Virus record (IMG/VR): IMGVR_UViG_3300004481_000138
From: an uncultured virus (IMG/VR IMGVR_UViG_3300004481_000138)
Lineage: Duplodnaviria; Heunggongvirae; Uroviricota; Caudoviricetes
Length of the DNA stretch: 64,000 bases
Direction: 5' to 3' (one strand)
Shown: positions 1-64,000 of the stretch, in pieces
How positions within the stretch are numbered: position 1 is the first letter of the stretch
Layout of the letters: each line of letters opens with the position of its first letter
Position numbers and translations under genes: made by a program
The notes under the pieces: generated by a model
The model's input: only the letters and a program-made list of their open reading frames with translations
Told to the model about the DNA's origin: nothing
The model's database searches: none

Positions 1-159
1 ATAAAAACAATCAACCCAATTGTTACAATCATTACAGTACTCATTACTATCAATGCCAAACTTGGTATATCATTAAACTTTATTATTAAATATACCATAG
101 CACTTAATAAAATAAAAAATAGCACCACACCAAACATTATAATCAAACTTTCCATTTTT

Positions 160-468
160 TCATTCTTGATAAAGTATTTCTTTTTTTAACTTTTTTGCTA
201 ATATTATCTCTCTTTTTGAACCTTTACTATTTTTATAATTATTTAATACATATACTATATCTACTCTTTTTATAAGCACAAAACATTCCTTCATAATTTT
301 TTCATATCCTATCATTTCTTTGTGCCCTAAAAAATTGGTGTGTGGACATATTACCGCATATCCTTTCTTAGCAATCCTTATTCCTTCCTTTTTTGCTTTC
401 TCTATATTTTTCATTATATTATCTTCCTTAGCATCTGTATATTTTCCTATTATATATATTACTTTCAT
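160..468 (-). CDS. DUF4406/nucleoside 2-deoxyribosyltransferase-like small Rossmannoid protein
   Basis: From the likely start MKVIYIIGKYT: CPH motif, D-x-VYVL, SKGSKRE, typical of viral DUF4406/DUF1937-like proteins. Confidence 0.55.
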   Translation of the reverse strand: MKVIYIIGKYTDAKEDNIMKNIEKAKKEGIRIAKKGYAVICPHTNFLGHKEMIGYEKIMKECFVLIKRVDIVYVLNNYKNSKGSKREIILAKKLKKEILYQE

Positions 469-469
469 T

Positions 470-2671
470 CTAATTAAACTCACCACTAGGTAATCCAAAA
501 ATATCATCTCTTGACTTGCTTTCTTCCTCAGTTTTTTGCTGTTCAAAGGTTTTCAGTAAGTCAGGCGGACCTTGTATTTTATAATCATTAGTCTCTGTAA
601 CATCAATTTTTACATTTGTCTTCTCTAAATACCATCTAACTATATCATAATCCATATCTTTATATGTCTCTCTCTGATTTATTATACGTGAAAATCTTAC
701 AAGTGTTTGAAAAAATATTAATGTGCGTGCGTCAAATATAAAGCCATATTCTTTTACTATCTTTCTAACTATTTTGAATGCATCAATATCGTCTTTGCAA
801 TGTTTATATTTTATTAGTGTTTTAAAAAAATTCTCTAACTCTTCAGTATATAATACTCGTAAAATTTCAATATTTTCTGAAATTACTGTACGACTACCGT
901 TCAATGATATTATTTCATCTAATTCAGGATTTGGTTTTTCATTAACTAAATAAAAATAAAATGGTGCACGTTCATGCAAAGCATAATCCATACCGTCTAT
1001 CCACCAAACCATTTTTTGTTTAAATTCTAATCTTTTATCTCTTATAACCTTTCTCAGTTGTGGATTCTCGTATTTGTGTATAGGCAAAAATAAGTCCCAA
1101 CTTTCATCCCAATCCTCTTTTTCTATACCGTCCATAGTCATATTTAAGTCCTTATATGCCTTTCTTACCGCTCCTCTATATTGGCCAACATGCTCATAAT
1201 CTAAGTTTTGGCTAATATTAACATGACTTGTACGTTTATTACTAACTCCAACACTTCCAGCCTTGTCATAACTGTAATTATCTTCTAATAAAAAACTTTT
1301 CAAGTTTTGTATTAACTCCTTGTTCTCTCCAGCCTCGTCAATATGTATTGAACGATAGCTTCCGAGATGCCCAACTGTTATTACTTTAATATCTTTGCCA
1401 AACAAATTTATATTACTTCTTGTGCCCCTCAGTCCAGGAACACTTATAGACAAGCCATTTGAAGAAAGGTTATAGTAATGATTGAGCAAGAACGGGTAAT
1501 ATTTTAATACTAAAGACTTACCAGTACTTGGGTCTCCCACAATCATTACATTTAAAGATAACCTTTCTTTCAAATGACTTGCTAAGGTCTGTAGGATGAG
1601 CGCACACTTGATTGGATTTAATCCATATATTCTTATTCCTGTCTTCTCCTCAACATAATCATCACATACTTTTTGTAATGTATATAAATAATTCTCATTA
1701 GGCTTCAATAGTGGTAGTTTGAAAACGTTTGTTTCCGGCTTCTTTACATCAACTATATGAAACATCATTGTTTTAGTTCCCGAAACTGTATATACAATCG
1801 CCTCATACTTGCCAGGCGGTATGTTCAAAAAACTTATTCCTTGCGCTCCTTTACGTTGTTTGTTTTCCTCATAATTTAGTTCATAAAAAAATGCTGTTTT
1901 ACAATTTTGATTATCGTTATCTGGATATAAAAATGCTTTACACAATCTTGACTTGAGTTCTCCCTCAGCATTTGTATAAGTATAAATTCCAGAACAATTA
2001 ATACCATTACGAGTATTACTTACAACCTCATATGATTTAGCCGTACTCACAGTTCCACACTGTCTACAACTGTAAGTGAACTCCATTGGATAATCAAAAC
2101 TAACAGCACCTGTAACTATATCAATAATTATGTGTTGTATAGTCTTCTTTGCTAATGGCTCAGTTATATCTAAATCAGGATTATCAAAATCATATTTAAC
2201 TATACAATCCCCCATCTCATCAACAATCAACTTTCTATACATTTCATAAGTACTCTCCTTATTAACCCAGTATACTCCTTCTTCCTCTGTTATTTCATCT
2301 TTCTTTAAACCTTGTTTGAATTGTTCTTCTTTATTTAATAAACTTTTAACATAACGAAAAAGTTGTTCTCTCATCTCTTTATATATGTCAGGAAAAATAC
2401 GATACTTATTATCCTTATCAAATTTGCTTCTATTGTATTGTACAAACTTTTTTGACATAGATAAATCATTTCTCCTAAAATATACCTCACCGTCAGGACC
2501 TCTTCCTATCAACAAATATGTTATTAACTTTTTTACATCATCTGTTGATAAGTAACGGAAGAGATGTTTTTTGCAAAAACCTATTATTCTTATATCTTTA
2601 CTGTAACGTTCTATATCTTCTGTTGTTCTAGAAAAATCTAAACCTTCATTAACATTATTATCCTCTTCCAT
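470..2671 (-). CDS. mcm: Divergent MCM-family replicative helicase
   Basis: Zn finger CRQC..C..C, Walker A GDPSTGKS, SVPGL (cf. SxAGL), Walker B IHIDE, arginine-finger region ALHER, sensor-2-like DARTL. Confidence 0.85.
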   Translation of the reverse strand: MEEDNNVNEGLDFSRTTEDIERYSKDIRIIGFCKKHLFRYLSTDDVKKLITYLLIGRGPDGEVYFRRNDLSMSKKFVQYNRSKFDKDNKYRIFPDIYKEMREQLFRYVKSLLNKEEQFKQGLKKDEITEEEGVYWVNKESTYEMYRKLIVDEMGDCIVKYDFDNPDLDITEPLAKKTIQHIIIDIVTGAVSFDYPMEFTYSCRQCGTVSTAKSYEVVSNTRNGINCSGIYTYTNAEGELKSRLCKAFLYPDNDNQNCKTAFFYELNYEENKQRKGAQGISFLNIPPGKYEAIVYTVSGTKTMMFHIVDVKKPETNVFKLPLLKPNENYLYTLQKVCDDYVEEKTGIRIYGLNPIKCALILQTLASHLKERLSLNVMIVGDPSTGKSLVLKYYPFLLNHYYNLSSNGLSISVPGLRGTRSNINLFGKDIKVITVGHLGSYRSIHIDEAGENKELIQNLKSFLLEDNYSYDKAGSVGVSNKRTSHVNISQNLDYEHVGQYRGAVRKAYKDLNMTMDGIEKEDWDESWDLFLPIHKYENPQLRKVIRDKRLEFKQKMVWWIDGMDYALHERAPFYFYLVNEKPNPELDEIISLNGSRTVISENIEILRVLYTEELENFFKTLIKYKHCKDDIDAFKIVRKIVKEYGFIFDARTLIFFQTLVRFSRIINQRETYKDMDYDIVRWYLEKTNVKIDVTETNDYKIQGPPDLLKTFEQQKTEEESKSRDDIFGLPSGEFN

Positions 2672-2843
2672 GTGTTAGAGACCTCAATATAAAAAATATT
2701 GGACAAAATATAGTTATTTATATAAATAGTGAAAAAAGTTTGGCGAAATATTTTTGTTGTGTTAAACAATTTTTAAACAATTGTGTTATATAAATATTTT
2801 GTGGTTACAAAAATTTATATCTTAGAAGAAAAAAAGAAAAAAA

Positions 2844-8305: not shown

Positions 8306-8749
8306 ATGAGGTATATTTATTATACATGGACACAATTAATGCAGGATTGTAATAGGATAGCAAACGAATTAAAGTTATTAAAAAAACATAAAATTAAATG
8401 GATTTATGGAGTTCCTCGTGGCGGATGTATATTTGCTGTAATACTTTCTCATAAGTTAAATGCAAAATATTTAACAAGTTTAAAAAAGAAACACATTCCT
8501 GAAAATACCTTGATAATTGATGATGTTGCTGACAGTGGGAGAACGTTAAAACGTATAATCAACCACAAAAATTATATATCAGCCACAGCATTTATTAAGT
8601 TAGACACAGATTTTATACCTAATATATATTGCCGCACAGTTTCAAATAAGGTATGGATTGATTATCCATATGAGATAAATGGAAACATTTGGAATACAAA
8701 TAGAGGATGGAAGCGAGCAACTTCCAGAGATAGTAAGAGAGCAAAATGA
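8306..8749 (+). CDS. Type I phosphoribosyltransferase (xanthine/guanine PRT-like)
   Basis: GVPRGG, PRPP-binding LIIDDVADSGRTL, WIDYPYE. Confidence 0.85.
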   Translation: MRYIYYTWTQLMQDCNRIANELKLLKKHKIKWIYGVPRGGCIFAVILSHKLNAKYLTSLKKKHIPENTLIIDDVADSGRTLKRIINHKNYISATAFIKLDTDFIPNIYCRTVSNKVWIDYPYEINGNIWNTNRGWKRATSRDSKRAK

Positions 8750-9962
8750 GAAGGCAGTAGAATTATATGATTGGCAACGACGTGCAATAAACTATTTCTT
8801 CATACATAACAATAAGGCTATATTTGAGGTAACAACCGGTGCAGGAAAAACGTTTTGTGCTATTGAAATTCTTAAGCAAATACATGAAACAGAACCTGAA
8901 CTACGTTGTTTGATTGTTGTTCCAAAAAATGTAATATTAGAAACTGGGTGGTATAAAGAATTATATAATAATGGATATAGTTTAGCAGAGATAGGAGTAT
9001 TTTATGGTATGACTAAGGAATATGGCCGTGTAACTATTACAAATATGCAGTCATTAAGTAAGGTAGCACTTGAGTTATTTGATATAATTATATTTGATGA
9101 GATACATAATTATGGTACATTACGTCTTTTACCATATCTTGAATATAATTTTAAATATAAAATTGGATTAAGTGCTACTGTTGAAAGAATGGATAATGCC
9201 CATTGGAATATATTAAAAGCGTTTGATTATAATGTATTTATATATACACCACATCAAGCAATACAGGAAGGAGTACTTAACCCATTTAAATTTTTTAATG
9301 TTGCTGTTGAGATGGATTTAGAAAGTTATGAAGAATATTTAACTTTGACACAACAATTAAATACATTATTAATGAGTGGTGGCGGGTTCCAAAAACTTAT
9401 GCATTCTAAAAGTGGATTAAAGTTTAAAATGTTAAGTTTGATGAATAAACGTAAACAATTAGTTAATAATTATAGGAGAAAATTTGATGTTGTTAAACTA
9501 ATTTGTGAGAAATATCCTAATGAGAAGACACTTGTTTTTAATCAGTATAATTCACAAACAAATAAATTGTATTGGCATCTTTTAGAGAGCGGAATTAGTG
9601 CTAGAATAATGCATAGTGATATTCATAAAGAAGAAAGAAATAAAACATTAACAGATTTTAAGAATGATAAGTTTCAAGTACTTTTAGCGACAAAAATTCT
9701 CGATGAGGGGTACAACCTACCCGCTATAAGTTGTGGTATAATAATGGCTGGGGATAGTACTGCTAAGCAAACAGTGCAACGTTTGGGGAGGGTACTTAGA
9801 AGAAAGAAGAAAGAGAGTGTATTATTCCAAATATATTGTAAAGGGACGATGGAAGAGGAACAAGCACGTGAAAGAGCAAGACTATTTAAGGAATTAGCAA
9901 GTTATTATAATGATTATGTTTATGAATTAAATAAACCGTTGATGTTAGAAAATGAACAATGA
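8679..9962 (+). CDS. Superfamily II DExH helicase (XPB/Rad25-like)
   Basis: Q-motif LYDWQ, TGAGKT, DEIH, GLSAT, LDEGYNLP, QRLGRVLR. Confidence 0.9.
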   Translation: METFGIQIEDGSEQLPEIVREQNEKAVELYDWQRRAINYFFIHNNKAIFEVTTGAGKTFCAIEILKQIHETEPELRCLIVVPKNVILETGWYKELYNNGYSLAEIGVFYGMTKEYGRVTITNMQSLSKVALELFDIIIFDEIHNYGTLRLLPYLEYNFKYKIGLSATVERMDNAHWNILKAFDYNVFIYTPHQAIQEGVLNPFKFFNVAVEMDLESYEEYLTLTQQLNTLLMSGGGFQKLMHSKSGLKFKMLSLMNKRKQLVNNYRRKFDVVKLICEKYPNEKTLVFNQYNSQTNKLYWHLLESGISARIMHSDIHKEERNKTLTDFKNDKFQVLLATKILDEGYNLPAISCGIIMAGDSTAKQTVQRLGRVLRRKKKESVLFQIYCKGTMEEEQARERARLFKELASYYNDYVYELNKPLMLENEQ

Positions 9963-10164
9963 GGAAAAAAATATAATTGATAAACGTATGGAACAATTAC
10001 GTTTACATTGCGATGCTTTTATTGAATCGCGCGGTGTGCGTATACTTGTTAGATTGCAATGTATTAGATGTGGTGCGTTGTTTGCTGAGGACCAATTAGA
10101 CTTATTAAATCAACATTTGGACATGCATAGTTATGATATGATGGTGAAACAAAATGATGGATAG
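9952..10164 (+). CDS. C2H2 zinc-finger protein
   Basis: CIRCG..F....LLNQHLDMH. Confidence 0.55.
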   Translation: MNNEEKNIIDKRMEQLRLHCDAFIESRGVRILVRLQCIRCGALFAEDQLDLLNQHLDMHSYDMMVKQNDG

Positions 10165-11221
10165 TAGTTTGGGATTTGCAAAAAGGAAATTGATTGGAGA
10201 GATAATCAAGCAAAATTGGGGTGTGGCTAAGCCTGAGGATAAAAAAAGTTTTACACTTAATGATTTATTATATATTATACAAGAAATGACTACTATGGAA
10301 GGTCGTCCATATTTAGAGAGTAAGCAAAGTATTATGTACGGTCATGAGGTATTTAGAAGATTTGTTCAATTGTTGATGTATCGTAACTTAGCAAATTTTG
10401 ATAGTATGATATTAATTACTAGTGAGAAGGGTATGGGTAAGTCATCAGCAGCTATTATGATAGCAAAATATTGGTGCAAGTTGCAAGGAATTCGTTTTGA
10501 CCCAAGTCGTCATATAGCATATAACAATGCAGATTTAATGCAGAAAATAGATAATCTAAACAAGTTTGAACCAATCATTGCTGATGAAGCCATAAGGTTT
10601 GTTTCTTCAGAAGATTGGGCTAAGAAAGAAAACAAGGATTTAAAGAAAAGACTTGCACAAGTTAGGACTAAACACTTACTTTATATACTTTGCTTTCCAC
10701 TAAAAATTTATAAGGTTGAGAAAACCTATCTCGAGAACTATGTAAATTACTGGCTGGATTTGTATGGTAGGGGGGTTGGCGCAATATATGTTAGGGACAA
10801 GAATCCAGTGCAGGATAGTTGGAGGCAAAAAGAGTTTAATTTAGTTGGTAGTTATAATGAGTTTAGTAACCAACAGAAGATTTTGGAGCAGTTAAAAAAA
10901 CATCCTAACTTTTGGATACAAATTAAACTTCCTCGCCCACCTAGATGGCTTTATGAAAAATATTTGAAGGTTAGAGAGAAGAATGTTTATGATGACGAGA
11001 ATGTTTTGATGAATGTTAGTAAGGAAGATATTTGGAAGGCGTTACTTATTATGTCTTTGAGAGATATTATGTTGCACGATACTACATTAACCATGAATCG
11101 TATAATCTTACACATACGTTCTGAGTATGATGTAAATATAACTAAGCAAATGGTGGAAGCAGCGTTGGAAGATTGTAAACAACTGGTTTTAAAAGTTAGA
11201 GAGAAAGCGATAGAGGCTTAA
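10154..11221 (+). CDS. P-loop ATPase, candidate morphogenesis/genome-packaging ATPase
   Basis: Walker A variant SEKGMGKS, Walker B IIADEA, downstream QVR; resembles ATPases of non-tailed archaeal viruses; role inferred. Confidence 0.7.
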   Translation: MMDSSLGFAKRKLIGEIIKQNWGVAKPEDKKSFTLNDLLYIIQEMTTMEGRPYLESKQSIMYGHEVFRRFVQLLMYRNLANFDSMILITSEKGMGKSSAAIMIAKYWCKLQGIRFDPSRHIAYNNADLMQKIDNLNKFEPIIADEAIRFVSSEDWAKKENKDLKKRLAQVRTKHLLYILCFPLKIYKVEKTYLENYVNYWLDLYGRGVGAIYVRDKNPVQDSWRQKEFNLVGSYNEFSNQQKILEQLKKHPNFWIQIKLPRPPRWLYEKYLKVREKNVYDDENVLMNVSKEDIWKALLIMSLRDIMLHDTTLTMNRIILHIRSEYDVNITKQMVEAALEDCKQLVLKVREKAIEA

Positions 11222-11223: not shown

Positions 11224-11631
11224 ATGTCCGTAATAGCAGAAAAAATTTATAATATTGATTTGGTTGTGGAAGAGATTAAACTTGCTCCACAAACTTATAA
11301 TACAATATTGAAAGAGGAAGTCTTCAACGCCACCTTTCAGTTTTCTTTACGTCGTAAAATAAATAAGTTATGTCAGCAAGGTATTATCATGAAGACTACA
11401 ATACCTGGAACACGCTTTGGACAGGTTTTACTTTATATTGAACCTCGTAAATATAAAATGTTAGTTGAGGCTACTAGGATTGGTGTTAGTGTTTATTACT
11501 TTTTTGATTATGAGAAAATTAGCAAGTTTTATATTAAATTAGTACACTATTGGGAGCTTGATGGAGTAAATTGGATTGAGAAGAATGAGGAGAAGACTTT
11601 TTTTGAGGGTAAAATATTAAAGTTTATTTAA
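11224..11631 (+). CDS. Hypothetical protein, possible wHTH
   Basis: LRRKINKLCQQGII segment; lies directly after the ATPase. Confidence 0.35.
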   Translation: MSVIAEKIYNIDLVVEEIKLAPQTYNTILKEEVFNATFQFSLRRKINKLCQQGIIMKTTIPGTRFGQVLLYIEPRKYKMLVEATRIGVSVYYFFDYEKISKFYIKLVHYWELDGVNWIEKNEEKTFFEGKILKFI

Positions 11632-11670
11632 TCACAACATTTATATATTTTTACATAATTTAGTATTGAT

Positions 11671-12081
11671 ATGGCCATATGGAATGTAATAATAATTTTT
11701 GTTATGATATATTATACATTCTTTTTTATAGGATTAACATTTAAGAAGAAAAGGATACAATTAAAAAATATAAATACAAAATTGGATAATATGAGGAAGA
11801 TTCCAGTAAAAAATTTGGAGCAGCAAAAAGAATTTATAAATACAAAATATCCTAAACCAGGAAAATTTAAGTTTACGTGGAAGTGGTTAGGAAAAATATT
11901 ATTGATGATATTAATATCAATAGGTTTGTATAGAGGATACAATTCACTATTTAAATATTTAAATTTAGAATTTGCTTTTTGGCACGTGATATTAATCATA
12001 ATTTTGTTTCCTGTGATAGTTAATTTGGTATTACGTTTATTTCATTTGGAAAGAGATGATATAACAATATTTTTTAGGTGA
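11671..12081 (+). CDS. Membrane protein (3 predicted TM)
   Basis: Three hydrophobic stretches; promoter-like ATCACAACATTTATATA upstream. Confidence 0.55.
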   Translation: MAIWNVIIIFVMIYYTFFFIGLTFKKKRIQLKNINTKLDNMRKIPVKNLEQQKEFINTKYPKPGKFKFTWKWLGKILLMILISIGLYRGYNSLFKYLNLEFAFWHVILIIILFPVIVNLVLRLFHLERDDITIFFR

Positions 12082-12369
12082 TATAAATGTTAGGGTTTGA
12101 TTGTGATAAAGATTTAACTTTAGATGATAGTGTCTTTATACAAGTATACTCGGGAGAAGAATTTGTTTTTAGCATGCCTTGTAATATGAGAGAATTGAAA
12201 GATTTAAAAAAGGCTGTTGAGAAAGGAATAGAAAAAATACAAGATGTGAAGGATTGGCGTGTAATAACTAAGACAAAAAAGTTTTGGGATGAATGTAAAA
12301 TTACAAATAATATGCCTGATATGCAAAAATTATTGAAAGAATATAGGGAGAAGAAGAAAACAAAATGAG

Positions 12370-12888
12370 GTGGTCAACATCACAATAGTACTTATGATTG
12401 GACGCAGGACTCCGCGCAGTTGGTTCCGTGCAGGAATAACCAAAGTGCAAGGCATTATAAGTTTTCAAGAACACTTATTTACTATAATCAAACAATCTTT
12501 AAATCTTGCTAAAAAGAAAGCTAATGCAAGTAATACTGGTATAAAGTTTATAATGACTAGAGAAACAGAGAATGAAGATATTAACTATCAGCTGGAGTGG
12601 ATTAAAATTATAATTCAGGGTACTAAAGAACAAGAGGAAGATGAATATAATGATATACAAGGGTTATATTCACCTTTTGGAAAAATTTTGAAGAAGGATA
12701 TGCCAACTGATGAAAGATTGAAGAGGCAGTTTAAAACAAAACTTTTGACTACGGAAAAAGTACAGGAGGCGTATGATAAAGGTTTTGGCAGTGTGAGTGA
12801 TAATAATATTGCTAATAAACTTTTAGAGATGGGAATCCTCACACACGTGGAATTCATTAAAGATTATGATTCGAGGGATATGATATGA
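12370..12888 (+). CDS. Hypothetical protein
   Basis: 172-aa ORF in a tightly packed plus-strand operon. Confidence 0.5.
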   Translation: MVNITIVLMIGRRTPRSWFRAGITKVQGIISFQEHLFTIIKQSLNLAKKKANASNTGIKFIMTRETENEDINYQLEWIKIIIQGTKEQEEDEYNDIQGLYSPFGKILKKDMPTDERLKRQFKTKLLTTEKVQEAYDKGFGSVSDNNIANKLLEMGILTHVEFIKDYDSRDMI

Positions 12889-13142
12889 AGAAAATTTTTA
12901 TTATATATTTATTAATAATTTTTTCTTTATTTTTATTTGGTTGCCAAAAAAAGCCTCCTGAAATAACATCACAAACCTGTTTAGGCATGGGATATATTGC
13001 TCCACAGGATGCTAATGTATTAATAAATCTAACCAATAAACTTGTTGATATTACAAATTATTGTTTTGCAAATCAAAATATTACACCACTTTCTCATCTT
13101 AAATATTGGCCTGATTTGAAGGAAAATATCATTATAGAGTAA
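12885..13142 (+). CDS. Putative lipoprotein/secreted protein
   Basis: MKK + hydrophobic stretch + LFGC lipobox-like motif. Confidence 0.45.
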   Translation: MKKIFIIYLLIIFSLFLFGCQKKPPEITSQTCLGMGYIAPQDANVLINLTNKLVDITNYCFANQNITPLSHLKYWPDLKENIIIE

Positions 13143-29750: not shown

Positions 29751-29752
29751 AA

Positions 29753-34748: not shown

Positions 34749-34749
34749 A

Positions 34750-39080: not shown

Positions 39081-39109
39081 TGCAATAAAGAAATTTTGAG
39101 GGGTAAATA

Positions 39110-39778: not shown

Positions 39779-39791
39779 TGAGAGGTAACTA

Positions 39792-43077: not shown

Positions 43078-43089
43078 AGGTAAAAGAAA

Positions 43090-43317: not shown

Positions 43318-43333
43318 ATTAGGGTGATGTAAA

Positions 43334-44224: not shown

Positions 44225-44226
44225 AA

Positions 44227-45008: not shown

Positions 45009-45014
45009 TATAAA

Positions 45015-55505: not shown

Positions 55506-55588
55506 TACCGGATGCAGGATTCGAACCTGCGGTAGCACTAAGCCATTGGGTCTAGACCAATGCTGGTTGACCTCTGCAGCAATCCGGT
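55506..55588 (-). tRNA. tRNA-Leu(TAG), C33
   Basis: Cloverleaf with long variable arm; loop TC-TAG-AC. Confidence 0.8.
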
Positions 55589-55591
55589 GTA

Positions 55592-55703
55592 TGCGAGGAG
55601 TAGGATTTGCACCCACGGTGTGAAACTTATTCAACCAGATATCTCAGCTAGTCTTGAGTTTAGCCCTTAAGTCTGGCCCCTTCGACTACTCGAGCATCCT
55701 CGC
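55592..55703 (-). tRNA. tRNA-Leu(TAA) with 25-nt BHB intron at 37/38
   Basis: CTTA/TGAG central helix, AGG and ATA bulges, GCTA/TAGC outer helix. Confidence 0.85.
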
Positions 55704-55707
55704 TTTA

Positions 55708-55797
55708 TGGAGCTGTGGGGAATTGAACCCCATGCATCCTCATCTCTTTACCATTATGGTATGCAAGTGAGGCGGTCTACCGATGGCCTACAGTCCC
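55708..55797 (-). tRNA. tRNA-Ala(TGC) with 18-nt intron
   Basis: G3:U70; CCTCA/TGAGG stem; relaxed BHB. Confidence 0.8.
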
Positions 55798-55798
55798 A

Positions 55799-55873
55799 TG
55801 GAGCCACCAGAGGGATTTGAACCCTCACCCAGCTGCTTACAGGGCAGTCGCACGACCGTCGTGCTGTGATGGC
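55799..55873 (-). tRNA. tRNA-Thr(TGT), C33, encoded CCA
   Basis: GCCATCA/TGGTGGC, U73; loop CC-TGT-AA; C8/G14. Confidence 0.75.
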
Positions 55874-55879
55874 GGTTGA

Positions 55880-55950
55880 TGGGGTTACCGTGATTTGCAC
55901 ACGGGCTGACGGTTCTGGAGACCGTTATGCTCCTGCTACATTACAACCCC
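55880..55950 (-). tRNA. tRNA-Trp(CCA)
   Basis: ACGGT-CTCCAGA-ACCGT. Confidence 0.8.
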
Positions 55951-56026
55951 TGGCGTAGCCAAAGAGACTTGCACTCTTACCCTCGTGCTTAACAGGCACG
56001 TGCTCCACTACTTGAGCTATGGCCAC
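55951..56026 (-). tRNA. tRNA-Asn(GTT), encoded CCA
   Basis: CGTGC-CTGTTAA-GCACG, G73. Confidence 0.85.
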
Positions 56027-56215
56027 AGAGTTTATTTAAGCCAGAAAATTCTGGTTTTTTTTTTGAAATGTTTGTTTTAGAATTTTAATGGCTTAAATAA
56101 AACATTTAGTTGGTGAGCGAACTACTCAATAATAGATTCGCCGTCCAATTACATGCTGTTATATATGCCATAGTATAATAAATCGATACTTATATATAAA
56201 GTTTATGATTTTTTA

Positions 56216-56725
56216 TTAGTCGTCGTCCACATCCTCATCTAAGTTTGTCATTAAAAATCTTATAAGTTGCCCAAGTAACTCTAGTGATATTTCTATGCTT
56301 ATTCCTTCCTCTTTAACCAATCTTTTTCTTAATTGCTTGTTCTGTTTTTTCATCACTTTCCAATTTATTTCTTCAATCTTATGTATTTTGTATGTTGCAC
56401 CCCAAAATGTTAATATATTCTTTCCTCTATGATAACCATTATGACAACTTTTGCATAATGTTATACAGTTTTTGATGCTGTCCTTACCATTATTTTTCTG
56501 GAATTTGACATGATGCATTGTTAATGGACTATTAGTATGTTTACAATCTTTATTAATGCATTTAAATCCGTCTCTTTGGAATACCAAGCATTTCAAGATA
56601 TATTTTTCATAAATCCTTATTTTTAGTTCATTATTTAGTTGTGTTAGGCTGTTTTCATCCCATGTGCTAAAATAACTACCTAAGTCCTTTATATTCCTGT
56701 ATATTTCATAATTTTCGTTTTTCAT
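56216..56725 (-). CDS. HNH endonuclease
   Basis: VFQRDGFKC..C..MHHV..NGKDSIKNCITLCKSCH. Confidence 0.8.
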   Translation of the reverse strand: MKNENYEIYRNIKDLGSYFSTWDENSLTQLNNELKIRIYEKYILKCLVFQRDGFKCINKDCKHTNSPLTMHHVKFQKNNGKDSIKNCITLCKSCHNGYHRGKNILTFWGATYKIHKIEEINWKVMKKQNKQLRKRLVKEEGISIEISLELLGQLIRFLMTNLDEDVDDD

Positions 56726-56732
56726 TTTTTAT

Positions 56733-57389
56733 TTACCTTGCTGGAACTTGTATTTTACTCAACCAATACTTTTCAGTATCAACATTCATAATGGCAAGTT
56801 TACCAAGCCAACCTACACCACAGTCCATCATTATAAGTTTTCCAAAACGTATTGGATTATTATATTGATAGGTTTGTGTGGTTGTATGGCCTACAAATAC
56901 ACGTTCATATTCTTTGATTTTTAATCCATTTCTACATCTTTCAATCAAGTCTCTATCCCATGTTAAAGTGTGCCTATCCTGTTTATCTATAGGAAATTTT
57001 GGATTATATCCGCCATGAACAAACAATCTATTGTTTTCTATATAGTAATACACACCGTTATTAAAAAAGTTTTGATGTGTAACTGGTATCATGTATTTAA
57101 ATTGAGCATAAGATTTTATTGTGTTTTTTCCACCTTGTGAAAGCCATATATCTTCACTCCAACCACTTTTCATATAATCCATAAACCATTCATCATGATT
57201 GCCCATTATAAATACTATATTTTTGATTTTAAGTAATTCTTCAACTACTTCATAAGTGTTATATCCACCATCAGTTACATCTCCTAATACTATAAGTTTG
57301 TCCTCATCATAGTTAAATTTACATAAACTTAAAACTTCTTTTAATGCTTCAATTCTTCCGTGGATGTCGCCAATCACAAATGTTGCCAT
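56733..57389 (-). CDS. Calcineurin-like metallophosphoesterase (PPP/ApaH-like)
   Basis: GDIHG, GDVTDGG, GNHD, VHGG, GHT motifs. Confidence 0.9.
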   Translation of the reverse strand: MATFVIGDIHGRIEALKEVLSLCKFNYDEDKLIVLGDVTDGGYNTYEVVEELLKIKNIVFIMGNHDEWFMDYMKSGWSEDIWLSQGGKNTIKSYAQFKYMIPVTHQNFFNNGVYYYIENNRLFVHGGYNPKFPIDKQDRHTLTWDRDLIERCRNGLKIKEYERVFVGHTTTQTYQYNNPIRFGKLIMMDCGVGWLGKLAIMNVDTEKYWLSKIQVPAR

Positions 57390-57393
57390 TGTA

Positions 57394-57465
57394 TGGGAAG
57401 ACAGGGAGTTGCACCCTGATGACTACGGCTTCAGCGTAGCGCATTCCTGGTTCTGCCATCTTCCC
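57394..57465 (-). tRNA. tRNA-Phe(GAA)
   Basis: CTACG-CTGAAGC-CGTAG. Confidence 0.8.
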
Positions 57466-57472
57466 TTGAGAG

Positions 57473-57545
57473 GTTAATAGTTGGGGGTTGAACCCAATCT
57501 TCTGGTGTCACAAACCAGTGTGCAAACCTTTACACCACTATTAAC
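57473..57545 (-). tRNA. tRNA-His(GTG) with encoded G-1:C73
   Basis: CTGGT-TTGTGAC-ACCAG. Confidence 0.85.
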
Positions 57546-57548
57546 ACA

Positions 57549-57622
57549 TGAGCTTGCTGGAATTTGAATCCAGACCCTCTCGTTCGTGGCGAGATATGAT
57601 ATCCTAATTTCACTACAAGCCC
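57549..57622 (-). tRNA. tRNA-Arg(ACG), A34 and C33
   Basis: TCTCG-CCACGAA-CGAGA; A20 present. Confidence 0.8.
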
Positions 57623-57628
57623 TTTAAA

Positions 57629-57703
57629 TGACCTTACTGGGAATTGAACCCAGGTTATTCCTGCTTAGAAGGCAGGTGCCATCATCCATTAGGCGATAAG
57701 GCC
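57629..57703 (-). tRNA. tRNA-Arg(TCT)
   Basis: CCTGC-CTTCTAA-GCAGG. Confidence 0.85.
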
Positions 57704-57708
57704 ATGTA

Positions 57709-57780
57709 TGGAAATACTGAGAGTTGAACTCAGTTTGCCTGCGTATCAGGCAGGTAGCCTAACCGTTAGCTGATATTTCC
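57709..57780 (-). tRNA. tRNA-Ile(GAT)
   Basis: CCTGC-CTGATAC-GCAGG. Confidence 0.85.
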
Positions 57781-57785
57781 ATATA

Positions 57786-57857
57786 TACAGGAACGGAGAA
57801 TTGAACTCCGATAACTGATGCATAAGACCAGCTCACTAACCATTGTGATATTCCTGT
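57786..57857 (-). tRNA. tRNA-Ile(TAT)
   Basis: CTGGT-CTTATGC-ATCAG; G37. Confidence 0.8.
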
Positions 57858-57861
57858 GTAA

Positions 57862-57933
57862 CGATGCCAACGGGATTTGCACCCGTGTCCAAGGATAGAC
57901 AGTCCAAGATGCTAACTTCTACACCATGGCATC
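57862..57933 (-). tRNA. tRNA-Asp(GTC), weak anticodon stem
   Basis: TTGGA-CTGTCTA-TCCTT (two U-U mismatches), G73. Confidence 0.7.
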
Positions 57934-57937
57934 ATAA

Positions 57938-58012
57938 TGGGGCACACGCGATTTGAACGCGCATTCTCTTGGTCCCAGGCCAAGGATGTTTACCAAGTTA
58001 CACTAATGCCCC
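57938..58012 (-). tRNA. tRNA-Pro(TGG), C33
   Basis: CTTGG-CCTGGGA-CCAAG. Confidence 0.8.
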
Positions 58013-58020
58013 TTTACTAA

Positions 58021-58095
58021 TGCTCCCAACGGAATTTGAATCCGTGTTTTCAGATTGAAAGTCTGATGTGATTATCCTGGCTACACCATGGGAGC
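58021..58095 (-). tRNA. tRNA-Glu(TTC)
   Basis: TCAGA-CTTTCAA-TCTGA. Confidence 0.85.
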
Positions 58096-58101
58096 ATTTG
58101 C

Positions 58102-58175
58102 AACGGTGTCAGTTCCAGACCTGACCGTGAACTTCCTTTCAGAAGTCCAGTTGGATTTGAACCAACGTCCCCGTC
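58102..58175 (-). ncRNA. Circularly permuted tRNA-like RNA (T arm, loop-closed acceptor stem, D arm)
   Basis: GACGG-GGAC-GTTGG TTCAAAT CCAAC-TGGACTTC-TGAAAG-GAAGTTCA-CG-GTCA GGTCTGGAAC TGAC-A-CCGTT. Confidence 0.7.
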
Positions 58176-58177
58176 TA

Positions 58178-58252
58178 TGCGGCTACCCAGATTTGAACTG
58201 GGACCGTCATCGGTGTAAACGATGTGCCATGTCCAGATTAGACCATAGCCGC
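58178..58252 (-). tRNA. tRNA-Val(TAC)
   Basis: CATCG-TTTACAC-CGATG. Confidence 0.85.
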
Positions 58253-58357
58253 TTATTTTAATGGCAATTCATTTATTATGCTGTTCTCAGGTAAGGGGTC
58301 TTGCCACCATTTATGTAGTTTAAGTCTGTCATACAATTCATTTATTGTTTCCATGGA

Positions 58358-58428
58358 TGCAGTTGCTGGGATTTGAACCCAAAACACCTCCTTGGTGGAG
58401 AGGTATGATACCATTTCACCACAACTGC
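58358..58428 (-). tRNA. tRNA-Gly(ACC), A34 and C33
   Basis: GCAGTTG/CAACTGC; CCTCT-CCACCAA-GGAGG. Confidence 0.75.
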
Positions 58429-58431
58429 GTA

Positions 58432-58502
58432 TGCGTCAGGCGAGAGTTGAACTCGCGCAGCCTGCTTGGAAGGCAGGAATGCTACCGTAACATTTCTGAC
58501 GC
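58432..58502 (-). tRNA. tRNA-Gly(TCC)
   Basis: CCTGC-CTTCCAA-GCAGG; A8/T14. Confidence 0.8.
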
Positions 58503-58507
58503 ATGAA

Positions 58508-58596
58508 TGCTCCTGGCCAGATTTGAACTGGCGTCTCAAAGTTTCTTCATTATTAATTCCAAAGCCTTGTATGCTTGGCCGCTACACCACAGGAGT
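58508..58596 (-). tRNA. tRNA-Gln(TTG) with 16-nt BHB intron
   Basis: CAAGG/CTTTG stem; CTTT/GAAG helix with GGA and AAA bulges. Confidence 0.8.
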
Positions 58597-58602
58597 ATAT
58601 AA

Positions 58603-58676
58603 TATCCCTGCCAAGATTTGAACTTGGGTTCTTCCGTTCCAGAGACGGATGACTTTAACCACTCGTCTACAGGGAT
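58603..58676 (-). tRNA. tRNA-Gln(CTG)
   Basis: TCCGT-CTCTGGA-ACGGA; A1-U72. Confidence 0.85.
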
Positions 58677-58679
58677 ATA

Positions 58680-58755
58680 TGGCGGGTCTGCACAGATTTT
58701 CACTGTGATTCTCCTGGGTAAGAGCCAGGTATGTTATTATTTACACCACAGACCC
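58680..58755 (-). tRNA. tRNA-Lys(CTT), encoded CCA
   Basis: CCTGG-CTCTTAC-CCAGG, G73. Confidence 0.8.
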
Positions 58756-58834
58756 TTCATGCCAACCTCCTCAGCACCCACAAGCATACAGAGGCAACCA
58801 GTTATTTCAAACCATGGGACGGTTTTAGCATGAA
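58756..58834 (-). ncRNA. Unassigned 79-nt structured spacer RNA
   Basis: Closing stem TTCATGCTAA/TTGGCATGAA exactly fills the gap between two tRNAs; inner hairpins AAACC/GGTTT and CCTC/GAGG. Confidence 0.5.
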
Positions 58835-58969
58835 CGGGTTTGCTGGGTATCGAACCCAGACCTCACTGCTAACTCCAGGATGTACTCACTCCCACATGGT
58901 TTTGCAGTTGTGTAGTCAACCTATCCATCCTTAAAAGGCAGGTGCGCTATGCCATTACGCCACAAACCC
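58835..58969 (-). tRNA. tRNA-Lys(TTT) with ~61-nt intron
   Basis: CT-TTT-A then intron closed by AGGATG/CATCCT; CTTT/GGAG helix and TTA bulge; G73. Confidence 0.75.
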
Positions 58970-59043
58970 TGGTCTGCTTGTTGGAAATCGAATCCAAATA
59001 TGACGGGCTACAGCCGTTTGCATTACCTTTATGCTACAAGCAG
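58970..59043 (-). tRNA. tRNA-Tyr(GTA), archaeal type, encoded CCA
   Basis: C1-G72, A73, short variable loop; loop CT-GTA-GC. Confidence 0.85.
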
Positions 59044-59048
59044 TTATA

Positions 59049-59123
59049 TAGAGATATCCGGATTTGAACCGGAACTCTTCGGCTCATGAGGCCGACGGTT
59101 TAACCAAATTAGCCTATATCTCT
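59049..59123 (-). tRNA. tRNA-Met(CAT)
   Basis: TCGGC-CTCATGA-GCCGA; A1-U72 (initiator-like) but without the three consecutive G-C anticodon pairs. Confidence 0.8.
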
Positions 59124-60528
59124 ATTTATGTATAGAATCTTTTTCTTGTTCCCATAAAGGGAAAGTATAAAAAATTTCTTAGAAAATTTCTCAAAATGGG
59201 AGCAATGAAAGATTTTATGATTGCCTGCCGACTATAAAGTATGCAGGCACAATTCGCTCTCCGTGTTCCATTTTGTCTATCATAAAGTGTGAATGTATTT
59301 TACCTCAAAAAAAATTCATCTGGCGACGTTGACCGTTTTCATTACAGGCATCACCAGGGGTCATTTATTAATTCTATTATAGTAAAACATTACTAATATT
59401 TAAAGTTTATGATTTTAATGATGGTTTAATCAAGTTTTTTGGTATCTTTAAGTCTAGTAAAACACCTGTTATTTTTACTTTCAAACCCATTTTTTCTAGC
59501 TCCTTCTTTATATCATGTGGAGTCCATGGATTATTTTTCGGAATAATTATATCAATAGTGCATTTCATTTTGTTTCAACTCTTTTATCAATTTCCTTCTA
59601 GGACTACAAATATGTGGCAGACTAAGTATATCTCTACCTACTATAAGACCACAATATGGACATTTTTCAATCATTTCACATCAGCCTCTTCTCCTTCAAA
59701 TTTTTCTCTTATATGTTTTACATACCCTTTGAGTTCTTGTCTTAACATTTCTTCAAGTGTTGCTTCTCTCCCATCCAGCCAACGATATGTTTTGGCATAT
59801 TCTTTCTTGATATGGCAGTGTGTGATTTTGTATTCTTCACCAAATCTTTGTCCAATAATAAATCCCAAAACCGCATCATCATTTGATGGAAGATGTTTAA
59901 AATTATGATTTATTAATGATGTGAAGAGAAAGCAACTGCTTCTCAAAGATAATAAAATAATGTCATCTTCTTTAAATATTATCTTTCTTCGAGTATCTTT
60001 CTCGTATTCTTTCTGGAGTTGTAAGAATTTATTGTAGATATCAGAATCCAATTCTTTAATATAGCTATTAATCATTTTGTGTCATTTCCTCTCTTTCACC
60101 TTACTCCTTATGCCCATATATTATCATACGCTCAATACCTGAAAGCTTCACAGCAACAAGTGTGTCTCTAATGGTATTTTTCACCTTAAGATATTGCTGA
60201 TATGCATTATTATACTCACGGGTACGCACATCAGGATTCTCGAAAACATTAGTTCTCACAGCATATACCTTTATCAACATCTTCAACGAATCCACAAGTA
60301 TTTCCATATCATCCATACACATCACCTTTTATATTATTATCCTGTTCGGACTTATTCGTTATTCTCGGGGTTGTTACCCCATTATCCGAACAGGATTGTT
60401 TATTTAATGGACAGTATATATTAAGACATTCTATATTATCACATTCAAACCCTTTAAAATTCAGGCATTGCCTGGCTATCTTAATAAGGTTGGGTCTATC
60501 TTCATCTATTGTTTTAGACATTTTTTCA

Positions 60529-62321: not shown

Positions 62322-62527
62322 TGTTTACCACCCGTTCATGTTTTTTTATATTAGTTTGAATTTCAAAGATTTCTTCGAGGTACCAGTCTTCGTGGCACTC
62401 AACTATATCAGCCATCAATGTTTGCGCTGATGCATGTTTTATTTCATCGTTCTCGCCCTGCACTGGCGGGCTTTCTATAATTAGAGTAATTCCTTCCTGC
62501 TCGTGCATACGAAAAACATATTCTTCG

Positions 62528-62941
62528 TTATTCATTATTCCATCCTTCTAACTGTTTTGTCAAAACCTCTATCAAATAGTTTGTGTAACTCTTATGTTGT
62601 GTATCATGATTCCAAAACTTTAAGTGTGCTATTTCGTGTGCTGCTATCTCTATAGCACGTTCTTTGTTTACGTCATGCCATCCTAAGCACTTATATTTGT
62701 TGCCATTCTTATCCCTAAATCTTCCGTTTGTATGTAAAACAAACACTGGCTTTCTGACTGTTATTATAAGCTTGAATTTGTCATGCAGGCTGATACATTT
62801 ACCGCCTGAACGATGCCCACCGCGTGTTGGCTGTCTTATCAGTATACGCAAAGGCATTGGCAAACTCTCATCTTTTATAACCTTATACATAATGTTTATG
62901 AGTGTTTGGCGTGTTTCTAAATCCATTCTTTTTTTCACCAT
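62528..62941 (-). CDS. Zincin-like metalloprotease domain protein
   Basis: AHEIAHLKFWNH. Confidence 0.55.
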   Translation of the reverse strand: MVKKRMDLETRQTLINIMYKVIKDESLPMPLRILIRQPTRGGHRSGGKCISLHDKFKLIITVRKPVFVLHTNGRFRDKNGNKYKCLGWHDVNKERAIEIAAHEIAHLKFWNHDTQHKSYTNYLIEVLTKQLEGWNNE

Positions 62942-62995
62942 ATGGTTTATAATGTTTATCGTCTTTATTATAGTAATTTTTACTACTTTAAAAAG

Positions 62996-63655
62996 TTACT
63001 GTTTTACACTTTCAGTATATGGAACACTATCCTCAACCCATTCATATCTTGTCTTATGTTGTTTGATATTAGGTATGGCCTGTAATATCTTACGTTTGTA
63101 GTTTCTCAAGCTAACACTGGTGATTCCAATAATTCTACAATATTCTTCCTCGGTCACCCTATAATCCTCAATCCTGTCAGCAAGATATGATATAGCTGCG
63201 GCAAGTGATGGTGAATTATCACCAACAACAACATCATGTTTCTTCAAATAATCCAATAAAAAATATGCTCTTGCATAGGATTCTGGCGGCGAATGAACCA
63301 CAGCTTGCACCATATCTATATATTTATCAACAGTTGTTGGCTGGAAATACCTGCCTATAACTTGTGAGATATGTCTTGATGTATTATAGATTATTGAACT
63401 GCCCTTGGCACCTTTTGTATCTAAATCAAGTATATCGTTCATTCTTGTTGGTGTCATAGGTTGATTCCATCTCCTGCATGCCAAATATATTATTGCAGAT
63501 GCATACCGTTCAATGGTTCTGCCACGCAGTTTCTCTTTAGATATATATCTATCAAGTATTTGTATTGCTTCATTCTCTATCTTTCTATCAAGTTTTAATG
63601 CTGAGCAATCTATACCTATCTCTCTCACTATATTATCATAGCTGTTAGTCCTCAT
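62996..63655 (-). CDS. tfb: Transcription factor B (cyclin-repeat core only)
   Basis: LRGRTIERYASAIIYLACRR; second repeat G..P.SLAAAISYLA..T..E....GITSVSLRN; no N-terminal Zn ribbon. Confidence 0.85.
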   Translation of the reverse strand: MRTNSYDNIVREIGIDCSALKLDRKIENEAIQILDRYISKEKLRGRTIERYASAIIYLACRRWNQPMTPTRMNDILDLDTKGAKGSSIIYNTSRHISQVIGRYFQPTTVDKYIDMVQAVVHSPPESYARAYFLLDYLKKHDVVVGDNSPSLAAAISYLADRIEDYRVTEEEYCRIIGITSVSLRNYKRKILQAIPNIKQHKTRYEWVEDSVPYTESVKQ

Positions 63656-64000
63656 TTCCTTATCCTCTTCAAAAAACAGTCAAAACATTCTTTCTCTGTT
63701 GTTAAATTATCCTCATCTTCAGCCCATTGAAGATATGTAGCCATACTTAGAACATCTGAATTCATGAGTATGATACCTTTGGACGTATGTCCACACTTAT
63801 ACTTAATCATTCTTCACCTTCTGCTTGTGTATTACCATATGTTTACTGGTATAAATCCTTATGGTATAATATGTTTCCAACCAATTATATAGGTTGAACA
63901 AGAATATTATTATGGAAAATATTATGTTAAAATAATCTTTTTGTATGAACGTAACATAGATGTTGATGAACATACCAAATGTTAAAATCATGAACACGTT

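Follow-up and report, generated by a model that had tools for sequence, protein, structure and literature searches.

A 64-kb stretch of a probable archaeal virus genome carries paired hairpin proteins and an ATPase suggestive of a spindle-type particle

The stretch analyzed here (the window) comprises 64,000 nucleotides of the uncultured virus record IMGVR_UViG_3300004481_000138 and belongs to a contig of its own of 75,254 bp, which bears out the contiguous span of at least 64 kb noted in an initial annotation of this DNA. Its main subjects are two tandem genes for small hydrophobic hairpin proteins, which are candidate major capsid proteins, and an upstream gene for an AAA+ ATPase. The G+C content is 0.27–0.39 per 2 kb. 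Genes lie on the plus strand from about 4.3 to 51 kb and on the minus strand between 0.1 and 4.2 kb and between 51 and 64 kb; the cumulative GC skew is lowest near 4 kb and peaks near 50 kb, matching the divergent and convergent coding-strand switches (~4.2 and ~51 kb). A number of 83 open reading frames (ORFs) of the window were run against Pfam and PHROGs. A related IMG/VR genome of 82,649 bp with a 104-bp direct terminal repeat, hereafter G001, is syntenic with the window from the helicase gene through the structural block and also shares an MCM-like gene. The three genes that carry the interpretation are as follows (aa, amino acids; E, expectation value).

10154..11221, plus strand: AAA+ ATPase of the SSV1 B251 / His1 ORF16 family, 355 aa, proposed to be morphogenetic (phrog_5484, hhalign)
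30971..31189, plus strand: major capsid protein candidate 1, 72 aa, a hydrophobic helical hairpin, 80% identical to its G001 counterpart
31247..31543, plus strand: major capsid protein candidate 2, 98 aa, with a longer loop, a paralog of candidate 1, 71% identical to its G001 counterpart

The hairpin genes had been singled out as a pair of two-helix capsid-like genes, and the pairing holds. Both products open with MFMEIAIGAIGIGIVLMVGY, their helices and C-terminal ends are identical, each contains two hydrophobic segments, and the loop of candidate 2 is 26 residues longer. An AlphaFold2 model, informative for architecture only, shows a helical hairpin (residues 2–29 and 35–71) at a mean predicted local distance difference test score (pLDDT) of 81. 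Candidate 1 is the most conserved of the 28 gene pairs in common with G001 (80% identity; the ATPase reaches 67% and the MCM-like protein 47%), and such extreme conservation, together with tandem multiplication, is as expected of a capsid protein.

A search for homologs of the capsid candidates kept 894 clusters (E ≤ 0.01) out of 907 candidates, located on contigs that reach 98.9 kb, and a 50%-identity library contributed 132 representatives at E ≤ 0.001; the lineage is abundant and widespread. At least 217 loci occur in Joint Genome Institute (JGI) metagenomes, and one cluster member among ten homologs is also present in a Tara source. We examined 86 related loci, comprising 80 of these JGI loci and six from species-representative genomes; their G+C content is 22–40% (mean 30%). 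Most carry one (n = 24), two (n = 37) or three (n = 19) copies of the hairpin gene, while four copies (n = 5) or none (n = 1) are rare. An N-X-S/T sequon is present in 173 of the 175 copies. Distant relatives have charged N-terminal extensions of 65–240 aa before the hairpin, recalling the precursor part of SSV1 VP1 (a 144-aa ORF in the SSV1 record), whose N-terminal part is reportedly cleaved off. Five family members of 209–314 aa (P0134, P0136, P0147, P0149 and P0182) have a long charged, coiled-coil-like N-terminal part fused to the hairpin and may be precursors or lattice-anchored minor proteins.

The P-loop ATPase named in the initial annotation is the 355-aa protein encoded at 10154–11221. 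Its only PHROG match is phrog_5484 (E 7.4e-5), a family that the G001 ortholog matches as well (7.3e-6 as an ORF, 1.4e-7 in a six-frame search) and to which SSV1 B251 (5e-101) and His1 ORF16 (2.8e-62) belong. A profile built from 28 homologs aligns with His1 ORF16 at an hhalign probability of 94% (E 1.4e-7, 150 columns) and with SSV1 B251 at 43% (E 2.4e-4, 79 columns). Three controls score lower: the pleolipovirus ATPase HRPV-1 VP8 (1.7%), the MCM-like protein of the window (3.6%) and G001's RFC-like AAA+ protein (17%, with the alignment lying outside the P-loop). The AlphaFold2 model of the ATPase (pLDDT 78.5) has ORF286 of Acidianus two-tailed virus (ATV) as its best named match in a Foldseek search of BFVD (E 7.5e-6, 254 columns), with nameless rows ranking similarly or higher. 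The ATPase family comprises 342 clusters at E ≤ 1e-5 among 1835 candidates, and the contigs that carry homologs reach 125 kb at 82% identity and 183 kb at 67%. An intein domain (PF14890) occurs in 15 of 120 ATPase homologs listed, which are 480–605 aa long, so that the gene is a recurrent intein target in the lineage.

The spindle shape is a virus form specific to archaea; its capsid is considered an extensible lattice built from tiny hydrophobic proteins, and the Fuselloviridae, Halspiviridae, Thaspiviridae and Wyrdviridae are among the families with a hydrophobic hairpin capsid protein. The signature module of spindle viruses consists of such a protein and an AAA+ ATPase, according to a preprint (bioRxiv 10.1101/2025.02.15.638363). 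Both halves of this pair are present here, the hairpin protein in paralogous copies and the ATPase as a member of the SSV1 B251 / His1 ORF16 family. The same source describes predicted spindle viruses of Nanohaloarchaeota (DNSV-1 and DNSV-2) in which two capsid proteins are paralogs, a tyrosine integrase is encoded and one gene, for a proposed adhesin, exceeds 1900 codons. The window combines an AAA+ ATPase, two paralogous hairpin proteins, a tyrosine integrase and a very large adhesin candidate in the same way, the last reaching 3494 aa. Because this gene set recurs here, we favor a spindle-type (fusiform) particle, to which we assign a probability of roughly 60%. The comparison to DNSV-1 as well as DNSV-2 is one of descriptions, and there are differences: their genomes measure 20.8–22.1 kb, whereas the one here has 75 kb and those of relatives 82.6 to about 99 kb, the description consulted mentions no tRNA array, TFB or replication genes, and their host was assigned through CRISPR (clustered regularly interspaced short palindromic repeats) spacers.

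The two smaller reference viruses, His1 (Halspiviridae) and SSV1 (Fuselloviridae), have the ATPase family phrog_5484 in common with the window. In public records, mature SSV1 VP1 and His1 VP21 measure about 72–73 aa and combine two hydrophobic helices with a loop that bears a sequon, which is the layout of the candidates; SSV1 VP1 and VP3 form a short and a long paralog, as candidates 1 and 2 do, and in both viruses membrane proteins and large anchored proteins follow the capsid gene, as they do here. In the proposed mechanism, the two tandem paralogs of 72 and 98 aa would serve as major capsid proteins. In each, a short, probably N-glycosylated and outward-facing loop would join two hydrophobic helices, and the proteins would pack side by side into a hydrophobic particle shell. 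The ATPase would act in morphogenesis or genome delivery.

Several observations weigh against a spindle-type particle. In sequence, the capsid candidates do not detectably resemble known spindle capsid proteins: narrow (40 sequences) and broad (42 sequences) profiles reach hhalign probabilities of only 0.1–2.2% against SSV1 VP1, SSV1 VP3, His1 VP21 and PAV1 ORF121, a pairwise BLASTP against His1 VP21 gives E 0.21, and a profile search of solved structures returns nothing at E ≤ 10. Seven of 42 distant family members match phrog_16261, labelled ‘virion structural protein’ (best E 6.5e-4), but this family is not found in His1, SSV1 or PAV1. On the side of the ATPase, phrog_5484 matches something in nine of 14 cellular control genomes (E ≤ 0.01) and must therefore be regarded as a broad AAA+ group. 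Finally, small two-helix membrane proteins may have other roles.

Other differences separate the window from the established families. The genomes of His1 and SSV1 are 14.5 and 15.5 kb. Fuselloviridae are characterized by the VP1 family (phrog_11172 / phrog_5402), to which the candidates have no match, and by an SSV-type integrase, from which the integrase of the window differs (BLASTP against the SSV1 integrase, E 0.37). The Halspiviridae genome is linear, ends in inverted terminal repeats and encodes a protein-primed family B polymerase, whereas G001 has a PF00136 polymerase and a direct repeat. The record of PAV1 (Pyrococcus abyssi virus 1) annotates a small membrane capsid protein and, after it, membrane proteins and two adhesins of the ConA-like lectin type, the lectin superfamily also found in the giant protein of the window, but the genome is 18 kb and the capsid proteins give no profile match.

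A fold comparison of the 30971..31189 product with known capsid proteins, as suggested at the outset, retrieved only generic helical hairpins, whether by Foldseek against BFVD (best E 0.41) or the PDB (best E 0.51) or by VIA-align against 48,161 chains, and no spindle capsid protein is among the matches listed. A helical hairpin of 72 residues is non-discriminating in such searches, and we rejected the fold search as a capsid test, as it is evidence neither way. A tblastn search of a phage collection with candidate 1 and two distant family members gave no match. Ten apparent IMG/VR relatives (L002–L011) were discarded as false positives: they encode a 306-aa phage protein with a single 8-residue word in common.

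The hairpin genes lie within a structural block of about 30 kb that is conserved in related loci and otherwise consists of the following genes.

11224..13142, plus strand: five small genes after the ATPase gene, four of them kept in G001 at 34–61% identity
13229..18719, plus strand: two low-complexity Thr/Pro/Gln-rich proteins (1148 and 573 aa) around a 103-aa protein, with no family matches
18775..29259, plus strand: giant secreted, membrane-anchored adhesin candidate, 3494 aa (Laminin_G_3 / ConA-like lectin 5e-21, DUF2341, Ig-like domains)
29256..30118, plus strand: two conserved small membrane proteins (164 and 121 aa) with hydrophobic segments, adjoining the capsid candidates in related loci
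30124..30624, plus strand: HNH / endonuclease VII-like gene (phrog_1035 2.8e-12)
30621..30845, plus strand: conserved 74-aa protein directly upstream of the capsid candidates, 63% identical to G001, 47 ORFs across related loci
31633..31953, plus strand: conserved 106-aa protein with three hydrophobic segments, 61% identical to G001, 45 ORFs across related loci
31950..38436, plus strand: two large secreted sequon-rich proteins (932 and 1228 aa) with signal-like N-termini, 32–34% identical to G001
38481..40475, plus strand: three conserved proteins closing the block (199, 222 and 227 aa), 62–69% identical to G001, with no family matches

The giant proteins stand out by their sequons. The 3494-aa protein has 164 of them, an N-terminal signal-like segment and two C-terminal hydrophobic segments, and has homologs in 35 ORFs across the 86 loci; its C-terminal anchor does not match the capsid-candidate profile. 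The 932-aa protein (31950–34748) has 77 sequons and collagen repeats (Pfam Collagen 7.8e-12), and the 1228-aa protein (34750–38436) has 68 sequons. Per 100 aa, the three giant proteins contain 4.7–8.3 sequons, compared with 0.9–3.1 in the small membrane proteins and an 885-aa membrane protein, and 0–1.3 in the scanned proteins with cytoplasmic-type annotations and no hydrophobic segment. Of the giant glycosylated adhesins described in the initial annotation, three giant, sequon-rich secreted proteins thus stand, while their glycosylation is conjectural. These lectin-, Ig- and collagen-like proteins, anchored via C-terminal hydrophobic segments, may serve as adhesins. The PHROG ‘tail fiber’ matches of the 932-aa protein fall on its collagen-like repeats.

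A block composed mostly of membrane and secreted proteins would also suit an enveloped particle. An alternative is therefore an archaeal virus with another or undescribed particle, for example a pleomorphic, membrane vesicle-like one, in which the two-helix proteins are envelope or matrix proteins. The lack of detectable homology between the candidates and known spindle capsid proteins fits this view, as does the combination of a signal-like N-terminus and a C-terminal anchor in the giant protein, which resembles pleolipovirus spikes (the HRPV-1 VP4 record describes a precursor with a signal peptide). Nonetheless, the hallmarks of Pleolipoviridae, a VP8-type ATPase (phrog_1979) and a VP3-type membrane protein (phrog_5900), were not recognized: the ATPase profile against HRPV-1 VP8 and the capsid-candidate profile against HRPV-1 VP3 reach 1.7% each, and the ATPase matches the spindle-virus family instead. 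Moreover, known pleomorphic viruses have genomes of 7–17 kb. We consider such a particle unlikely, albeit with a real chance of being correct, and retain the spindle-type particle as the preferred reading.

The order of the block is conserved in the longer related loci inspected: the 103-aa two-segment protein, the giant adhesin candidate, the 164-aa signal-bearing protein, the 121-aa membrane protein, the 74-aa protein, one to four capsid candidates, the 106-aa three-segment protein, variable large glycoproteins, the trio of 199, 222 and 227 aa and usually an integrase. Within the block, the small genes at 11224–11631, 11671–12081 (two hydrophobic segments), 12370–12888 and 12885–13142 are kept in G001, where 12087–12368 is unmatched. 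The 103-aa protein (16677–16988) has two hydrophobic segments, is 66% identical to G001 and is represented by seven ORFs across the 86 loci. Its neighbors of 1148 aa (13229–16675) and 573 aa (16998–18719), both rich in Thr, Pro, Gln and Val and the first with a Gly/Ala-rich hydrophobic stretch, have no sequence match in G001, where proteins of 1414 and 410 aa occupy those places. In the closing trio, the 222-aa protein has N- and C-terminal hydrophobic segments. Judged by sequence, the conserved unannotated proteins (74–227 aa) look helical or membrane-bound.

This synteny also bears on whether the window belongs to a virus at all. A large plasmid or integrative element could encode membrane proteins, adhesins and a spindle-type ATPase, and small circular elements and plasmids with a spindle ATPase, a capsid protein or both have been described (bioRxiv 10.1101/2025.02.15.638363). 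An integrase and replication genes are present, and CheckV estimates the completeness of G001 at only 19%. On the other hand, neither the Pfam and PHROG scans of the window nor the scan of G001 found conjugation or partition genes, the gene order of the roughly 30-kb block is preserved in the longer ones among the 86 loci inspected, and the conservation and tandem copies of the hairpin protein fit a capsid protein. Big tRNA arrays, HNH endonucleases and 7-deazaguanine pathways, moreover, are typical of large viruses. A non-viral element is accordingly improbable.

The other half of G001 encodes a family B polymerase (PF00136), an RFC-like clamp loader, a uracil-DNA glycosylase, a fusion of PD-(D/E)XK and helicase domains, DUF932, a glycosyltransferase, an integrase, ThiF with a JAB protein and, from the 7-deazaguanine pathway, FolE, QueD, QueE and a TGT-family enzyme. 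The last four lie at 62205–67526, and the ThiF and JAB deubiquitinase-like gene at 45190–46465; in the part seen, the window shows only a QueE-like gene of this pathway. No tRNA gene was found in G001. No polymerase was found among the window ORFs in the Pfam and PHROG scans, the window lacking 11 kb of its contig.

Head-tail genes had been reported absent, and none was found among the 83 window ORFs, whether capsid, portal, terminase or tail-tube families, although very divergent forms are possible. Selected G001 ORFs of at least 100 aa (50 with Pfam and 31 with PHROGs) likewise contain no terminase, HK97 capsid or portal, and six-frame searches of its whole 82.6 kb detected no Terminase_6N and no HK97 Phage_capsid, with no portal model run in six frames. 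G001 thereby served as a syntenic proxy for the flanks of the window, where HK97 or terminase genes would have argued against the initial annotation. The HK97-fold capsid, large terminase and portal of Caudoviricetes are thus missing from the window and from the scanned G001 ORFs. A head-tailed virus, or an icosahedral one with a jelly-roll capsid, would need structural genes that are too divergent or that lie in the unseen 11 kb. In its favor, large tailed archaeal viruses carry large tRNA arrays (29 tRNAs in DNTV-1; bioRxiv 10.1101/2025.02.15.638363), the Gly/Ala-rich hydrophobic stretch of the 1148-aa protein may resemble those of tape-measure proteins, and several proteins of 200–620 aa have no annotation. 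Yet terminase large subunits can normally be detected by profiles, and the conserved unannotated proteins are of the helical or membrane-bound kind mentioned above; a jelly-roll fold in those of 199 and 227 aa is unlikely on their sequences. We hold this alternative to be very improbable.

Size sets the window apart from most spindle viruses, and its genome is probably among the largest of this type, but it is not without precedent, contrary to what the initial annotation implied. The tepeuvirus PBV144 (Tepeuviridae), a predicted spindle virus of the anaerobic methanotrophic archaea ANME-1, has a genome of 72.6 kb and one capsid protein (PMC9894754), and size alone is therefore not unprecedented; the lineage considered here reaches at least 98.9 kb in one contig. 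The same source assigns to pletoitzamnaviruses an RNA-primed PolB, Que genes, two capsid proteins and a split into structural and enzymatic arms. Large genomes with such arms, PolB and Que genes are thus shared with the predicted ANME-1 spindle viruses, the counterparts here being PolB and FolE/QueD/QueE/TGT in G001 and the QueE-like gene in the window. The environment and host clade differ, and the description consulted, on which this comparison rests, mentions no tRNA array, TFB or MCM-like gene. The NYMAG-47 group of putative spindle viruses of ammonia-oxidizing archaea (27–38 kb) was identified by like reasoning, from a small, conserved protein of two helices whose turn bears sequons and from the lack of a recognizable capsid gene. 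The 89-aa protein of that group reaches an HHpred probability of 75% to SSV19 VP1 (PMC10866085), a signal that the candidates here did not give with the tools used. ATV belongs to the Bicaudaviridae and is a large spindle virus; among the named structures, its ORF286 matches the ATPase model best. Its genome measures about 63 kb, a comparable size; bicaudavirus capsid proteins are larger and of another family.

The evidence on the host comes mainly from the right end of the window, where the following features occur.

55506..59124, minus strand: 24 tRNA genes, four with anticodon-loop introns (Rfam, ARAGORN)
56216..56725, minus strand: HNH endonuclease in the tRNA array (Pfam HNH 5.2e-8)
56733..57389, minus strand: NinI-like metallophosphatase in the tRNA array (Metallophos 6.7e-17; phrog_246 2.7e-52)
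62996..63655, minus strand: TFB/TFIIB core-domain protein, 219 aa (Pfam TFIIB 1.3e-15; NCBIfam TFB 6.5e-19, positions 130–304 of 312)

The count of 24 tRNA genes agrees with the initial annotation: 23 pass the Rfam gathering score, and tRNA-Leu(UAG) at 55506–55588 is found by ARAGORN and by an Rfam local search (41.5 bits). The genes occupy 3.6 kb, are split into groups of five and 19 by the HNH and metallophosphatase genes, and leave Ser and Cys uncovered. Insertions in the anticodon loop are present in Ala(UGC) (18–20 nt), Leu(UAA) (28 nt), Gln(UUG) (16–19 nt) and Lys(UUU) (~59–62 nt), with anticodons assigned by eye from alignments. The bulge-helix-bulge introns proposed earlier are thus upheld as insertions of 16–62 nt in four genes, and their bulge-helix-bulge geometry is putative. 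Introns at this place need an archaeal or eukaryal splicing endonuclease, which argues for an archaeal host. Two further genes, tRNA-Arg(ACG) and tRNA-Gly(ACC) (57549–57622 and 58358–58428, minus strand), have the loop CC-ANN-AA with C33 and A34. Archaea normally avoid A34 and U33 is near-universal; the two may be unusual or non-standard decoders. A tRNA-Ile(UAU) lies at 57786–57857 (minus strand). This tRNA replaces the agmatidine system in Nanoarchaeum and Korarchaeum and is a host lead only, as AT-rich viruses may possibly carry one anyway.

The TFB assignment is confirmed, with the qualification that the protein consists of the cyclin-fold core only and is devoid of the zinc ribbon and B-reader. 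Its structure-based neighbors are TFIIB clusters (template modelling score 0.8), while no word-sharing relative was found in 5.8 billion proteins. Most neighbors identified through language-model or structure comparison carry the labels Thermoproteota or Nitrososphaerota, too weak a signal for a host call. Archaeal promoters fared less well: TTTATATA is not enriched (31 matches compared with 23.4 ± 5.3 expected, a count reached by 10 of 100 shuffles). A motif recognized post hoc, TCACAAS-N1-3-TTTATA, has three matches against 0.07 expected, a statistic inflated because the motif was derived from these same sites. They lie at 4291–4306, 11632–11645 and 31590–31603 (plus strand), about 25–45 nt before the starts of the genes at 4352, 11671 and 31633, and look like a B recognition element followed by a TATA box. 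GGAGG- or GGTGA-like motifs precede the start codon of many genes by 5–10 nt.

Read from the tRNA introns and TFB in the sequence, the host is archaeal. Six capsid-candidate loci come from species-representative genomes labelled as bacteria (contigs of 2.7–11.9 kb), but a bacterial host was rejected: as five of these genomes contain no TFIIB, the loci are taken as mis-binned viral contigs that provide no host information. A DPANN host, to which no result obtained here leads specifically, is a guess. No public sequencing runs and no RNA dataset are listed for 29001–39000. Since TFB, an MCM-like gene, a near-complete tRNA set and low G+C content are also what a small cellular archaeal chromosome, such as that of a DPANN archaeon, would display, this origin was considered too. 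It is close to refuted. No ribosomal, metabolic or other housekeeping gene (Pfam, NCBIfam) and no rRNA (Rfam) was found in the 64 kb, G001 is a closed genome at 82.6 kb, no word-sharing relative of TFB turned up, and 24 tRNAs in 3.6 kb is a viral pattern. The window very probably represents 64 kb out of a double-stranded DNA genome of 75 kb that belongs to an uncultured virus of archaea.

The initial annotation went further and proposed an undescribed lineage of large spindle-shaped viruses. An archaeal-type, virus-like genome without head-tail genes and with the signature pair stands, while the capsid relationship to SSV1 VP1/VP3, His1 VP21 and PAV1 ORF121 could not be detected. We call the lineage undescribed solely because no description of one with these features was found in the full-text literature, supplements and subscription journals lying outside that search. 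New here are a spindle-type module in genomes of 75–99 kb and a separate capsid-protein family, to which this member adds a TFB core, an MCM-like helicase and a tRNA array. Tentatively, and with somewhat more doubt than confidence, these viruses may constitute a globally distributed, undescribed group of family rank or higher that includes the largest spindle viruses (75 to at least 99 kb, possibly more than 120 kb). Their shells would be made of one to four paralogous hairpins of 72–100 aa without sequence relation to VP1, they would encode their own replication proteins, joined by TFB and 24 tRNAs in this member, and their hosts would be uncultivated low-G+C archaea such as DPANN.

If this wider reading is true, the elastic capsid of spindle viruses can grow to accommodate genomes of a size regarded as typical of tailed viruses. 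A widespread lineage of 75–99 kb that combines a transcription factor and a replicative helicase with a tRNA array as large as those of large tailed viruses would put this scaling of the lattice to the test. It would also show that large, partly self-sufficient genomes evolved outside the head-tailed and giant-virus lineages; to our knowledge, spindle-shaped viruses are assigned to no virus realm. The 894 capsid-candidate and 342 ATPase clusters in public data offer a handle for finding the host, which is apparently abundant.

The remaining annotated genes concern replication, integration and accessory functions.

160..546, minus strand: DUF4406 / nucleoside 2-deoxyribosyltransferase-like protein, 128 aa (Pfam DUF4406 2.6e-13; phrog_355 2.2e-21)
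470..2671, minus strand: strongly diverged MCM-like helicase of 733 aa (Pfam MCM at residues 347–396 with 23.7 bits, cut-off 23.3)
8306..8749, plus strand: phosphoribosyltransferase-domain protein, 147 aa (Pfam Pribosyltran 3e-9; phrog_8995 1.2e-12)
8679..9962, plus strand: superfamily 2 DNA helicase, 427 aa (Helicase_C 3.1e-22, ResIII 2.4e-17; phrog_16 1.8e-58; 59% identical to G001)
40444..41310, plus strand: HNH endonuclease with repeated CxxC units (phrog_1271 2.8e-8; internal repeats)
41264..42214, plus strand: tyrosine recombinase (integrase) (Pfam Phage_integrase 6.2e-15; phrog_216 8.5e-28)
48325..49047, plus strand: QueE-like radical SAM enzyme of the 7-deazaguanine pathway (phrog_2076 3.9e-49; NCBIfam QueE 1e-20 to 1e-25, all below cut-offs)

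The integrase proposed initially is well matched and may enable lysogeny. The MCM assignment is weaker than first stated, given its borderline Pfam score: the match is limited to about 50 residues around the Walker A motif, MCM_OB and MCM_lid are not matched, and the best solved-structure match is MCM6 at E 0.19. Its language-model neighbors are MCM clusters (0.92–0.94), whereas the G001 ortholog (47% identical) has no MCM match. Together, the MCM-like and superfamily 2 helicases, the TFB core, the QueE-like enzyme and 24 tRNAs suited to an AT-rich genome would form the accessory set of the virus.

The HNH-type genes at 30124–30624 and 40444–41310 encode a common C-terminal motif (..QFKPGM.W.....GWHIDHKIP..). 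The former lies inside the structural block at a place where G001 has no gene, which fits the behavior of a homing endonuclease. On the minus strand, 53380–55239 encodes a 619-aa protein with a single, partial match, to NF041916, a family of RING-domain proteins (33 bits, cut-off 600). Finally, downstream of the integrase, 42375–45400 (plus strand) holds a run of small genes with near-identical 5' ends, in which a ribosome-binding motif is combined with ATGAACCCA..AAGATATTAGG in four copies and a second type occurs in two copies. This run is a tandemly multiplied family of small proteins, some of which have zinc-ribbon matches.

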